From a virus (taxonomy: Duplodnaviria > Caudoviricetes), in the IMG/VR virus record IMGVR_UViG_3300031857_000201, positions 1-58,573 of that record: a stretch of DNA of 58,573 nt. The stretch is one strand, 5' to 3'. Positions 3,848 to 14,352 of the stretch are shown one piece after another. Below the pieces are notes generated by a model. The model did not search any database, was not told where the DNA came from, and was given only the letters and a program-made list of their open reading frames with translations. Made by a program: the position numbers and the translations under genes. Positions within the stretch are counted from its first letter, which is position 1. Each line of letters begins with the position of its first letter.

Positions 3848-4294
3848 TTACTCCAATCCGGAAATCTGCTGGCTGGTCAGTGCTTGTATATCTGCCGTGG
3901 TTAACGCAGGGATATCTGCTGACTCCAGCACTACCGGGGCTTGCGTCTCAATAACCATCTGCGGCTCAACTTCAACAACAGGTTCGATGACAGGAGCATC
4001 AACACTAGGAGCCACGACAGGAGAACGAAATTCATTAGCATCTGCGTCATATGTATCTCCTATACTTGCATACTTGCCACGGAAATTACCGTTGTAGCTG
4101 GTCTGCGCCCAGCAGGTGTCTGCACCATACAACCCTTGGAGAAACTGAATACCCCTCTCTTCCGACAGCACTAATTTTTCCTTAATGAAGCCATTCTCTA
4201 TAATAACTTCCGAATTAATAGCCAACTCATTGTTGTGCACTACAAACACCGCAGTAACTGTATTATTTTCATCAAGCTTTGCAAAATGAGCCAT
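3848..4294 (-). CDS. Fibre-associated small protein (MAHFAKLDENN family), possible assembly chaperone
   Basis: Likely ATG at 4294 with upstream GAGG. Motif W.QTSYN.NFRGKYA.IG.TYD is common next to glycine-rich fibre genes. Confidence 0.7.
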   Translation of the reverse strand: MAHFAKLDENNTVTAVFVVHNNELAINSEVIIENGFIKEKLVLSEERGIQFLQGLYGADTCWAQTSYNGNFRGKYASIGDTYDADANEFRSPVVAPSVDAPVIEPVVEVEPQMVIETQAPVVLESADIPALTTADIQALTSQQISGLE

Positions 4295-4301
4295 ATCAAC
4301 C

Positions 4302-5210
4302 TCAGAATGTAATGCTGCCGCTGCCGGTAAAAATGTAAACCCAACGGCCATTAAAAACGTATATTGAAGGAGAACCTGTAACCGATGCGGCAGGGGCATA
4401 TGTAATTGGGTACGTTAGTATCACAACTCCGGAAGACCCTGAACCACCGGCGGAAGTGCCGCCAACGTTGACCCTCGTACCGCCGCCGCCACCCGCTCCA
4501 AAATTGGCTGTAGCATTTGATCCTGCTGCGGTGCCACCAGCACCAGCTCCGCCACCACCTGTGGCAGAACCTCCAGTATTAGATCCTCCACCACCACCGC
4601 CCCCGGCTCTTGTTATGGCCGCTCCAGTAATACTAGAAGTCACACCAGAGCCGCCCGTCCCGCCTGTGCCAGTACCTGTTGCATACGCTCCTGAGTAACC
4701 TTGGCTCGTCGTGCCATTCCCTACAAGAGTGGCACCGCCACCGACACTACCAGCGCCCCCGCCCCCACCAGCTCCTATCGCACCAATATTTGCAACGGCA
4801 GTTTGCCAGCCTCCTCCACTACCACCGGATGTAGCATCTTGATTACTTGGAAATCCACCTCCGCCTCGTCCACCGCCAGTAGCAGTTATGCTACTAAACA
4901 CTGAATTAGACCCACCTGCGCTTGCTCCACCACCACCACCTACTGTAACTGTGTAGGCCACGCCACGAGTAATGGCTAAAGGAGATTCAGCGCTTGCGCC
5001 ACCACCAGATGATTCTCCTACAACGGACGATCTATATCCTCCGGCACCACCGCCCCCTCCGACCCATGTGTCGCCATCTACGGAGATCGTCCCGCCCCCT
5101 CCCCCTCCTGCTAATACAACGTACTGGACATTTGGCGTAATGAACACGTTGTTAGCAACGGGGTTATATCCACTGGATATGAAATTACCGGGGATAGAGC
5201 GCAAAGGCAT
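4302..5210 (-). CDS. Glycine-rich virion fibre protein
   Basis: V.YVVLAGGGGGG...GGGGAGGYR, YTVTVGGGG, GGSGSSGVVILTYP and terminal YIFTGSGSITF are typical of phage glycine-rich domains. Confidence 0.8.
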   Translation of the reverse strand: MPLRSIPGNFISSGYNPVANNVFITPNVQYVVLAGGGGGGTISVDGDTWVGGGGGAGGYRSSVVGESSGGGASAESPLAITRGVAYTVTVGGGGGASAGGSNSVFSSITATGGGRGGGGFPSNQDATSGGSGGGWQTAVANIGAIGAGGGGGAGSVGGGATLVGNGTTSQGYSGAYATGTGTGGTGGSGVTSSITGAAITRAGGGGGGGSNTGGSATGGGGAGAGGTAAGSNATANFGAGGGGGTRVNVGGTSAGGSGSSGVVILTYPITYAPAASVTGSPSIYVFNGRWVYIFTGSGSITF

Positions 5211-12077: not shown

Positions 12078-12530
12078 TTAGTGGCAAGAACCACCTTTTT
12101 TGAAAGCTTTATGGCCGCAAGAGTCGCCTTTCATTGCAACAAAGCCACCTTCTTTATACTTTGAAGGCTTAATTGCGCCACCAGTTTTGTAACCACCTTG
12201 CGCATTGGCCACACCACCAGTTTTATAGCCGCCTTGCGCGTTAGCCACGCCACCGGTTTTCAAACCTTTGTGCGCTTTAGATGCTGGCATTGAAGCATGC
12301 TTCTTCAACTTGGATTCAGTTGAAGCCATTTTCTTCATTTCCATTGCGTGCTCGGCTTTGGACTCACCACCTTCTTTCATTGCCATAGTACCTCCTGACA
12401 TAGGTTGCATTGCGCCAGCCATTGGTGGCTGCGGCGCAGTAGGAAGTGCAGGTGCCATACCACGACGCATAGGGCGTTGCATACCTCTACGTGGCGCTGC
12501 CGGCATCGCTGCAGTTTTAGCTTTGGGCAT
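12078..12530 (-). CDS. Basic low-complexity protein with repeated xKxGG motifs
   Basis: Contains MKEGG, LKTGG, YKTGG x2, YKEGG, FKKGG, and a tandem KTGGVANAQGGY repeat. Confidence 0.8.
   Translation of the reverse strand: MPKAKTAAMPAAPRRGMQRPMRRGMAPALPTAPQPPMAGAMQPMSGGTMAMKEGGESKAEHAMEMKKMASTESKLKKHASMPASKAHKGLKTGGVANAQGGYKTGGVANAQGGYKTGGAIKPSKYKEGGFVAMKGDSCGHKAFKKGGSCH
12178..12262. repeat. 36-nt imperfect tandem repeat (~2.3 copies) encoding KTGGVANAQGGY
   Basis: Seen in both DNA and translation. Confidence 0.85.
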
Positions 12531-12744
12531 GTCGTTCTCCTAATTTGTGAGCATTGATAGGGATTGCATCGCCTATCTCATACCCAGGTATACTTACAGG
12601 TTCTTCTGTCAAATCAAGTCGAGCAAGCAAAGATTGCAAAACATCAACCGCTGCTTGTGAAGCAATGGCAACTTCATGTGCATGTTGCCGCTGCTCCTCC
12701 ATGCGCTTGATTTGCTCTAATAGATACTCTTTAGTAATATCCAT
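12517..12744 (-). CDS. Small coiled-coil protein, possible fibre chaperone
   Basis: 75 aa, helical heptad pattern, TAATG coupling. Confidence 0.65.
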   Translation of the reverse strand: MDITKEYLLEQIKRMEEQRQHAHEVAIASQAAVDVLQSLLARLDLTEEPVSIPGYEIGDAIPINAHKLGERHAQS

Positions 12745-13322
12745 TAAGCGGTGTCAGAAACCATTAAGTAGTACGTGGTGCCCGAAGCATTTTTGATAGG
12801 AATCACATGTGATACGGCAGCAGCAGATTCTGCAGCAACCATTGCGTCAGGAAACACAGCAAAAGTGCTAATTGCGCCAGTGCCACTATTGGTCAAACGC
12901 AGATAAGATGCATTAGTCCAAGTGCCACCGGTAGCAAAATCAGAATCCAATTGCAGCGCCGCAATGGTGCCACCAGGATTTGTAGAAGTACCGCCCAGCG
13001 TCACACGTAGTGCATTGCCTGCGCCAGAAATTGTACCGCTACCATTGATTGACAGCGAGATATGTGCGCCATTAACAGTGCCACCAGTTGCAGCGCCTGC
13101 GCCAGTTACTCGAGTAAGAGCACGTAGTGTCTCACCTGAACCAGTGGAGGTGAATTCCAAACGGCTGTAGTTGAGGCGAACATCGCCAGTGGTATTAGAT
13201 GCTGTTGCATACGAACTGGAAACGTTACCAGCAGTCGTTACAGCAATAGGATCAGCGGAAGTGCCACCAATAAAACCATTAAGCGATTTTACCGGGCCGC
13301 TAAAGGTAGTTTGTCCCATCAT
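12744..13322 (-). CDS. Capsid-associated fibre/decoration protein
   Basis: First gene after the MCP. N-terminal GQTTFSGPVKS motif, Gly/Thr/Ala-rich, TAAGGAG RBS. Confidence 0.65.
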   Translation of the reverse strand: MMGQTTFSGPVKSLNGFIGGTSADPIAVTTAGNVSSSYATASNTTGDVRLNYSRLEFTSTGSGETLRALTRVTGAGAATGGTVNGAHISLSINGSGTISGAGNALRVTLGGTSTNPGGTIAALQLDSDFATGGTWTNASYLRLTNSGTGAISTFAVFPDAMVAAESAAAVSHVIPIKNASGTTYYLMVSDTA

Positions 13323-13330
13323 TACTCCTT

Positions 13331-13396
13331 ATGCACAAGTTGCTCGTCCGTCTGTGCATCGTCTGCTAGGGCAGTCTGACGAGCTATTTTCCCTAG
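13331..13396 (-). ncRNA. Double-pseudoknot RNA element downstream of the major capsid gene (probably the Mu-gpT-DE motif class)
   Basis: Three perfect interleaved stems: 13391-96/13366-71, 13378-84/13342-48, 13353-59/13331-37. Three CAGAC linkers. The location matches my recollection of the Mu-gpT downstream element. Confidence 0.7.
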
Positions 13397-13429
13397 AAAA
13401 CTCTCCCACCAATTGCTTAGTGGGAGAGT
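13397..13429 (-). terminator. Intrinsic terminator after the major capsid gene
   Basis: Minus strand ACTCTCCCAC-N10-GTGGGAGAGT followed by TTT. Confidence 0.75.
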
Positions 13430-13437
13430 GTCTTACA

Positions 13438-14352
13438 TTAAATACCCGGAGTACCGTACATTGCACGCGGGTCGGTGAAGCCAATATCGTAACGCTCGGT
13501 GGCCTTGTAGCGCATCGAGTCGGTTTCGAAATCGCCTTCCATGGTCTTTTCCAGACCACGACGCATCAGCAGCTTCATACCTTCCGGCGTGTCGGTCTGT
13601 ACCCACCATGCGGTAGCGGAGGTAAGACGAGACAGAACCGAAGCACCTTGCGGCAGCAAACCAATCGACTTGATCGGGTTGATGTCGTTGTCGGCGGTGC
13701 CGGAACGCAGTACCGACTTCAGCAGGACTTCAGCTTGGAAGACGTTGCCAGGTGCAACAACCAGCTTCAGCGGTTGCAGGCGAATCTTCTTGCCGTTGTT
13801 GTCCACAGCCTGACGAACTTGAATCAGCATCTGCTCCAGAGAAGTCTGGGACAGGTTAGCTGCAGAAGTCAGCAGGTTGCTGAAGGTACCATTGACGATG
13901 GGGTGGTTGGAAGCGTTCAATGCAACGCCGTCACCACCGGGGTATGAACCGTTGAATGCGCGATTCAGTACGTTAGCTGCCAGAGTTTCTTTGGTTTCGA
14001 CCAGAGACTGCGCCAGGTGACGAGCATAGACGTTACCAATACGGATGTGATCGCCATCTTCCACCAGCACCTTGGTCAGTGCAAAGGCCAGACCGTAGAC
14101 CTTATACACATAGCGCTTCAGGAAGAGAACGCCACCTTGCTGGTAGCTAACCGGAGTGCCGTCGGGCAGCTCAGGAGCTGCACCGAAGCCGTACAGAACC
14201 GGCTCTTCATGGTAGTTACGGGGGATACCGGTTTGCTCACGGAACACTTGGCTCCATTCATCGGTACGCTGATCATAGACGCCGTCGAATGCTTCATTGA
14301 GAATTGGCTCAACAATCGAACGAAAGTCTGTACTTCTCATTGGGGCTGCCAT
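13438..14352 (-). CDS. Major capsid protein (HK97 fold, Mu gpT-like family)
   Basis: 304 aa, strong codon bias and a downstream terminator. Motifs GFGAAP, YGLAFALTK..VED, LARS/AQS..ETKE..AANVLNRAF, GGDGVAL, RYKATERY..G..DPR. Confidence 0.92.
   Translation of the reverse strand: MAAPMRSTDFRSIVEPILNEAFDGVYDQRTDEWSQVFREQTGIPRNYHEEPVLYGFGAAPELPDGTPVSYQQGGVLFLKRYVYKVYGLAFALTKVLVEDGDHIRIGNVYARHLAQSLVETKETLAANVLNRAFNGSYPGGDGVALNASNHPIVNGTFSNLLTSAANLSQTSLEQMLIQVRQAVDNNGKKIRLQPLKLVVAPGNVFQAEVLLKSVLRSGTADNDINPIKSIGLLPQGASVLSRLTSATAWWVQTDTPEGMKLLMRRGLEKTMEGDFETDSMRYKATERYDIGFTDPRAMYGTPGI

Follow-up and report, generated by a model that had tools for sequence, protein, structure and literature searches.

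A compact pseudoknotted RNA in uncultured phages precedes an uncharacterised gene family and may serve as its 5' leader

What is the structured RNA that lies between the major capsid gene and the following gene of this phage, and with which of the two genes does it go? The stretch of DNA analysed (hereafter, the window) constitutes a complete viral record, 58.5 kb long and bearing direct terminal repeats (IMG/VR record IMGVR_UViG_3300031857_000201; 58,573 nucleotides), and the features given below are on its minus strand unless stated otherwise. The upstream neighbour of the RNA is the gene for a major capsid protein (13438..14352; 304 aa; Pfam Phage_capsid_4, 1.2e-12), for which PHROGs returned major head protein families and whose residues 162-224 gave a weak match to Pfam Mu-like_gpT (PF10124; 25.7 bits). 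When the region was searched with blastn, the capsid gene alone had matches (73-77% identity), in Caulobacter phages and in two uncultured records. Folding of 13440..13310 placed a terminator-like hairpin after the capsid gene (13429..13397; 13-bp stem, GCAA loop, then UUUU at 13400..13397). The downstream neighbour, here called gene X (12744..13319), encodes 191 aa counted from its second ATG, with the N-terminus MGQTTFSGPVKSLNGF, the signature of its family; since the X homologues are of 191 aa, the second ATG (13319), 5 nt after the Shine-Dalgarno sequence, is the likely start. Farther downstream, an open reading frame of 150 aa (12078..12530), rich in A, G, K, M and P and containing a repeated YKTGGVANAQGG unit, had no Pfam or PHROG family.

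The letters of the minus strand were read exactly as a preliminary description had given them, in the order A-B-A'-C-B'-C', and the plus-strand GTCTG words start at 13350, 13361 and 13374 as it had stated. The interval that it had delimited (13325-13429) was replaced by the element proper, 69 nt at 13396..13328, and two further hairpins, D and E, were recognised, the strand order along the RNA being A-B-D-A'-D'-C-B'-E-C'-E'. The 5' strand of helix A (CUAGGG, 13396..13391) abuts the UUUU of the capsid-gene hairpin rather than starting in the U tract, as had been described. A spacer (AAAAUA) separates it from the 5' strand of helix B (13384..13376), which consists of GCUCGUC (13384..13378), an A.G mismatch and the closing G13376, the G of the first GAC word. 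Hairpin D (13374..13363) has the stem CUG (13374..13372) / CAG (13365..13363), and its 6-nt loop is A' (CCCUAG, 13371..13366), the partner of A. The next part (13362..13353), assigned from the C:C' pairing and the GAC spacing, comprises the junction ACG and the 5' strand of helix C, AUGCAC(A) (AUGCACA at 13359..13353). It is followed (13352..13342) by the junction (A)GA, by C13350, which pairs with G13376, by the mismatched G13349 and by B' (GACGAGC, 13348..13342), as assigned from the covariation of helix B. After a linker (AA), hairpin E (13341..13328 including the linker; stem CUU 13339..13337 / AAG 13330..13328) carries C' in its loop (GUGCAU, 13336..13331; whole C' strand UGUGCAU, 13337..13331). 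The Shine-Dalgarno sequence AAGGAG (13330..13325), followed by UAAUG and AUG, is adjacent to C', as had been noted, and its first three bases are additionally taken into helix E as strand E'.

The fold was shown to have three arms, each of about 9 bp, which meet at a junction of three invariant GAC words, in 66-73 nt: in the first arm, the loop A' of hairpin D pairs with the 5'-terminal strand A; helix B forms the second; and in the third, the loop C' of hairpin E pairs with the junction strand C. Helix B thereby joins two pseudoknots, each made of a hairpin loop and a distant strand. The G of the first GAC pairs with the C of the third, closing B, and the C of the first pairs with the G of the second as the first D pair; the unpaired bases of the junction are A1, A2, C2 and (A)G3A3. 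The third GAC was invariant in 99/99 sequences, at a fixed spacing of 8 nt from the second. Three CAGAC words had been recognised earlier as linkers; the words are there, but a plain linker role does not fit them, since their GAC cores pair with each other to form the junction.

Covariation was evaluated by comparing the observed pairing with that of shuffled sequences and with that obtained when the partner strand was slid. With a MAFFT alignment of 51 sequences, the pairing of B + D was 96.7%, versus 65.0% (shuffled) and 20-35% (slid), and changes on both sides were found in 10/12 of the B + D pairs; helix B has 9 pairs, 8 of them doubly changed. Both helices were recovered by RNAalifold unaided. 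The alignment of 99 sequences was made to a model knowing B and D only, helix A not being fitted; under this condition the pairing of A + B + D was 94.6%, versus 70.6% (shuffled) and 27-41% (slid), with double changes in 16/18 pairs. Pairs 1-5 of helix A were formed in 95-100% of the 97 distinct sequences, with CG/UA and GC/AU swaps. The stem of D was 100% paired, with the family form CNG/CN'G closing a loop of 6-7 nt (A'), and its middle pair was AU in 42, UA in 37, CG in 16 and GC in 2 sequences. In L021, a held-out sequence, U-A replaces a C-G pair of D that is invariant elsewhere, and in the held-out sequences L062 and L073 every helix was kept with new sequences. For C:C', at least 6 consecutive pairs were found in 96/97 distinct sequences, with 23 different C strands, and shuffled 3' tails gave a run as long as the observed one in, on average, 5.4% of trials. 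Hairpin E was tested in a fixed register, in which all pairs were formed in 83/96 sequences versus 3-34/96 when slid (cells paired, 93% versus 36-65%); it covaries at two positions (pair 1, CG 67 and GC 16; pair 3, CG 42, UA 23, GC 16 and UG 12). This test superseded an earlier flexible search (90/97), which allowed about 12 registers and was not rigorous.

As far as comparative sequence data go, the support from covariation for each of A, B, C, D and E confirms that the pseudoknotted RNA is real. The interlocked pseudoknots of the preliminary description were thus borne out by A, B and C (99 or 97 relatives), and the covariation in homologous loci that it had proposed to look for was found in the 16/18 doubly changed pairs. 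G.U pairs are also present (for example, UG in 14 sequences at pair 20-66). The G.U pairs and the compensatory changes fit only an RNA of the gene's strand, and a DNA-level signal or a recombination linker was therefore rejected.

A second pairing of strand A was observed in part of the family. In L081, L119, L117, L153, L212 and others, A can pair with a decoy strand, A*, situated just before B (columns 1-21 of alignment A3), as in CCGG..CCGG, CUGG..CCAG, CCCGA..UCGGG and CCAGG..CCUGG, so that A* changes along with A. A run of at least 5 A:A* pairs was found in 38/97 sequences, versus 10.5% of shuffled linkers; it was present in 43/45 sequences of the CCGGG type and in 6/28 of the CUAGG type, to which the window belongs. 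The alternative 5' hairpin may represent an intermediate of folding, or it may act as a switch; about two thirds of the relatives appear able to form it, which hints at switching. Separately, the copy in L021 (3956-4023) has its helix A down to 3 pairs, together with the compensated U-A pair in D, and the X reading frame of the same locus (4033-4542) diverges from the family in its last third; this copy may be decaying or may reflect an assembly error.

The next question is how widespread the RNA is and what accompanies it. A covariance model of the element (R1) had a single match in the window (63.7 bits; E, 5.5e-19), with no second copy elsewhere in the genome, and had exactly one match in each of 99 diverse sources. 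Among 80 loci fetched via the capsid protein, R1 matched 9, those in which the next gene starts with M..TTFSGPV; among 80 loci fetched via the X protein, it matched 73, directly upstream of X. In the other seven X loci (L084, L093, L101, L107, L112, L114 and L143) X overlaps the stop of the upstream reading frame (TAATG), and the RNA leader and translational coupling would appear to replace one another. IMG/VR was also scanned without regard to genes, using a degenerate DNA pattern of 27 letters for the core; at least 120 stretches were found, and R1 was strong (40-76 bits) on 80/80 among the viral pattern matches listed. A scan of 596 Gb of prokaryote genomes with this pattern, which served as a negative control, likewise gave at least 120 stretches; R1 matched at full length in 3/80 among the matches listed, the remaining ones having the pattern alone (18-26 bits). 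The three full-length elements (L361, L313 and L315) are on contigs binned to metagenome genomes of Verrucomicrobia, Gammaproteobacteria and Spirochaetaceae; these contigs may come from phages and have been caught up in the bins, and they are unreliable as host evidence. The element is confirmed as a large RNA family in many uncultured phages.

The reading frame after the element had the N-terminal motif [ST][TSNH][FYL]xG[PA] in 72/72 unique elements of the pattern scan and in 92/93 complete reading frames of the wider set, the one miss being a wrongly chosen start; the strict form TTFxGP was found in 80/93 of the complete X frames. The element travels with the downstream gene X, not with the capsid gene. 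X homologues fall into 3552 clusters at E<=0.001, all of them unnamed or "hypothetical". No Pfam or PHROG family was found for X, and tblastn of X against 50,697 deposited phage records gave no match; among 35 diverse X proteins, Pfam gave none for 32, PF22237 for two long variants and a match below the cut-off for one. An AlphaFold2 model of X from 41 sequences was too poor (mean pLDDT, 60.7), the ESM Atlas returned only unnamed viral clusters, and a lead to Phage_cement_2 (0.78) was rejected as being at chance level. Basic residues are scarce in the X proteins (median K+R, 3.6%; median net charge, -1): of the 14 members of 90 aa or less, four lack both K and R, and 87/92 members have 0-1 basic residue in the shared N-terminal 20 aa. 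From the position after the capsid gene and the conserved N-terminus on a variable body, we infer that X is a capsid-surface protein. Conservation of the X family is confined to about 16 N-terminal residues (TTFxGPVxSxNGF) on unrelated bodies of 55 to 239 aa, some with (GNVT)n-like repeats and two with the PF22237 SO2946-like C-terminal domain; it gives the impression of a conserved anchor to which exchangeable display domains are attached. Two downstream arrangements were also seen to be conserved: in many loci with a short X (L197, L211, L172, L190, L228, L208, L240 and others) the next gene starts with M(M)QTDV or MQYDV, and in the class with an X of 185-199 aa, which includes the window, it starts with MQITKEF and overlaps the X stop.

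Is the RNA a member of a described family? Rfam 15 (4227 covariance models) gave no match in the whole window at gathering scores and none in 13100..13700 at E<=10, so that the Rfam search proposed in the preliminary description returned no family even at the relaxed threshold. That description had suggested Mu-gpT-DE (RF03012), a motif named for its position downstream of the Mu gpT-like major head gene. In the window, the element lies downstream of a capsid gene whose product has the weak Mu-like_gpT match mentioned above, which may be a point in common. The RF03012 model, of 53 positions and with a gathering cut-off of 49 bits, had no match at the site, and its best scores in the genome were 9.1, 9.0 and 6.9 bits, all elsewhere; the element, in contrast, has 69 positions, is linked to the downstream gene throughout its family and often has its own promoter. 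Membership of Mu-gpT-DE is thus refuted, and we leave it practically no chance. No description of the element was found in the literature searched, the Minerva preprint included; 8495 anonymous candidate RNAs from IMG/VR were catalogued in 2023 (PMC10690425), and the element may be among them. Set against Rfam 15 and this literature, we rate it as a new family and a new fold of a known kind, the structured 5' leader.

The 5' side of the element was examined for the origin of the RNA. A sigma-70-like site with the -10 box ending 3-16 nt before A was found in 64/99 contexts, versus 107/1896 random positions used as the control (rule: at least 8 of 12 matches); a stricter rule, which gave 31/99, missed obvious boxes and was superseded. 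The distance from the -10 box to A was 7-9 nt in 51 of the 64 contexts (mode, 9), and this placement predicts a transcript start 0-3 nt before A, so that, on the basis of these predicted promoters, the fold begins at the 5' end of the transcript. The tie to the capsid gene and its terminator, as described earlier, was accordingly abandoned: the element follows gene X, and in most relatives it has a putative promoter of its own. Note that no promoter-like site was found in 12650..13650 of the window. In the window and about a dozen relatives, A comes directly after the upstream hairpin and its U tract; with no promoter before it, the leader RNA of the window would be made by read-through of the capsid-gene hairpin alone, and in all these genomes the 5' end would be at A only after processing. 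The hairpin of the window had been called the capsid terminator; it has only four U, so that the scan for the terminator consensus made no call, and it is probably leaky. In the window (13400..13385), CUAGGG stands between the UUUU of the hairpin tail and the AAAA of the A-B spacer; in a read-through RNA, to judge from the letters, A could form the 6-nt loop of a small hairpin, as A' and C' do, which is clear only in the window and in L001. In L085 and L086 (about 1400-1425), strand A (CCGGGG) doubles as the 3' arm of the upstream terminator hairpin, and the folding of the terminator and that of the leader would therefore compete. Contigs from RNA libraries cross the element unbroken from the capsid gene (X1, record 2, 13285..13582; the relatives X2 and X3 likewise), these being contigs only, with run shares of 0.05-0.23, which may derive from DNA or from an uncut precursor.

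On the 3' side, a Shine-Dalgarno-like word begins at the first base of E' in 66/96 relatives and within 0-5 nt of it in 86/96. After X, a terminator-like hairpin with further genes beyond was found in 11/93 loci and was absent in 82/93, and X thus usually opens an operon. In most relatives the RNA was shown to span from about +1 of the transcript, as placed by the predicted promoters, to the first Shine-Dalgarno bases of one gene family.

The reading that we prefer, as a tentative one that may well turn out wrong, is that 13396..13328 is a cis-acting 5' leader of the X mRNA, which buries the 5' end and gates ribosome loading. The leader would act in cis and after transcription: it would shield the start of the mRNA from decay that depends on the 5' end (by RppH, followed by RNase E or RNase J) and would hold the ribosome-binding site at its foot, in a fixed position and partly closed, the two effects together setting the yield of X protein per transcript. 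RppH and RNase E are both described as requiring single-stranded 5' ends, a 5' structure thus stabilising the mRNA, and BsRppH as requiring at least 2 unpaired 5' nucleotides (PMC3997798). In this phage, the output of X would be the product of read-through and of the stability and translation set by the leader; since the leader here would be made only by read-through, its setting the capsid-to-neighbour stoichiometry, as suggested earlier, is plausible. The preliminary description had also offered antitermination, which is impossible for the capsid terminator since the element is transcribed after it, RNA stabilisation or translational control and, alternatively, a structural RNA; the pseudoknotted RNA has been established above, and an action on the expression of the next gene is most likely.

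Several points argue against the preferred reading. A generic stabiliser should serve other late genes as well, yet there is one copy per genome, before one gene family; the roughly 9 invariant junction bases and the two loop-strand pseudoknots exceed what a protective hairpin needs; the window and the dozen or so relatives mentioned have no promoter before A; and the A:A* hairpin is possible in about two thirds of the relatives. In addition, E has only 3 bp, so that any gating of the Shine-Dalgarno sequence would be weak.

The specificity for one gene family (72/72 and 92/93) would also fit a fold that bound a small molecule, as a riboswitch, or a phage or host protein, the binding steadying the pseudoknots and shutting the Shine-Dalgarno sequence at E, in the manner of the pseudoknotted leaders to which S4, S15 or T4 gp32 bind. 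Such a sensor or operator would also give a role to the invariant unpaired bases of the junction, to the overlap of E' with the Shine-Dalgarno-like word (66/96, through the 3-bp E) and to the competing A:A* pairing, which is found in part of the family, is nearly general in the CCGGG type and covaries in the CUGGG, CCAGG and CCCGA types. We nevertheless regard it as doubtful, since X itself, with its few basic residues and its slightly negative net charge, is an unlikely RNA binder, no ligand is obvious for a gene next to the capsid gene, A:A* is infrequent (6/28) in the type of the window, and no riboswitch or leader model in Rfam matches.

The preferred leader was further compared with leaders of known function. 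The S4 and S15 leaders are gene-specific and have pseudoknots that adjoin or overlap the ribosome-binding site. Like the pseudoknotted autoregulatory leaders of the E. coli alpha operon (S4), of rpsO (S15) and of T4 gene 32, the last being described in PMC10690425, the element is a 5' leader in cis with pseudoknots at or over the ribosome-binding site of one gene; it differs from them in matching no model, in preceding a gene whose product has few basic residues and is an improbable RNA binder, and in a fold that begins at the first bases of the transcript. With the 5'-terminal stabiliser stem-loops of the ompA and papA type it shares the pairing of the very 5' end of the mRNA, A being 0-3 nt after the predicted start; the -10 box lies 7-9 nt before A in 51/99 contexts, by predicted promoters, and the window itself has none. 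Those stabilisers are, however, simple hairpins without conserved sequence, whereas the element is a three-arm double pseudoknot with an invariant junction, attached to a single gene family.

The same 5' ends bear on another proposal, an RNA-processing element. It might be a new ribozyme of the small self-cleaving kind, or it might imitate a tRNA, being of that size, and be cleaved by a nuclease of the host; cleavage would separate the X mRNA from the capsid transcript, and the 5' end so created would be protected. Small ribozyme classes are compact and pseudoknotted and have invariant junction bases, which the 66-73 nt of the element, its pseudoknots and its 10 or so invariant junction bases may recall, and a cut would be useful in the window and the relatives of its kind, which sit straight after the upstream hairpin with no promoter. 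The pistol ribozyme, in which a 6-nt hairpin loop pairs fully with a distant single strand, offers a further analogy in a small RNA; the element, in contrast, has two such modules, 3-bp stems and a different junction, and does not match the pistol model. No Rfam ribozyme matches at E<=10, ARAGORN finds no tRNA-like gene, and the precise spacing of the -10 box in 51/99 contexts would be needless if cleavage made the 5' end. The RNA-library contigs bridge the element, a weak argument, as they may be DNA or uncut precursor. Processing of this kind seems to us quite unlikely.

Finally, an RNA at the very start of a transcription unit might act as a processive antiterminator of the HK022 put type, which binds the transcribing RNA polymerase and carries it past downstream terminators. 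Put RNAs are similar in size to the element, an analogy that might favour this, and 11/93 loci have a terminator-like hairpin after X with more genes following. Against this, the other 82/93 loci have no such hairpin, the 3' end of the element keeps within 0-5 nt of the X Shine-Dalgarno sequence in 86/96 relatives, which is needless for binding RNA polymerase, and the capsid terminator precedes the element and is beyond its action. We consider this very unlikely.

In topology, though in topology only, the element resembles the xrRNA of flaviviruses, in which 5' and 3' flanking strands pair into a region enclosed by a central helix. The 5' and 3' tails of the element likewise both pair into the region closed by its central helix, A:A' and C:C' both crossing B:B' with covariation support, and the whole is compact and reinforced by pseudoknots. 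It differs in that its 5' tail pairs with a hairpin loop and a 3' hairpin loop pairs with a junction strand, and no Rfam model matches; no xrRNA of phage or bacterial origin was found in the literature search.

The meaning of the finding lies in a tRNA-sized fold that is widespread, has strong covariation and is unmatched among 4227 curated RNA families, and that is tied to a family of phage proteins both very large and uncharacterised (3552 clusters, each of them "hypothetical"). Compact RNAs with pseudoknots and invariant junction bases have repeatedly proved to be riboswitches, ribozymes or nuclease-resistant structures. It is possible, though we would not call it probable, that the element represents a new functional class of RNA, either a nuclease-resistant knot of phages or bacteria that threads the 5' end of its own mRNA into a three-arm pseudoknot, or a class of small ribozymes or riboswitches with a triple-GAC junction and two pseudoknots of the loop-strand kind; if the nuclease-resistant knot were true, it might have no precedent in phages or bacteria. 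The secondary-structure model is precise enough for the design of compensatory mutants and of constructs for structure determination, and in synthetic biology the element might find use as a 5' module, small and portable, with which to adjust mRNA stability and translation. If it proved to be no more than a plain leader, it would still reveal how phages tune the output of the neighbour of the capsid gene relative to the capsid protein.
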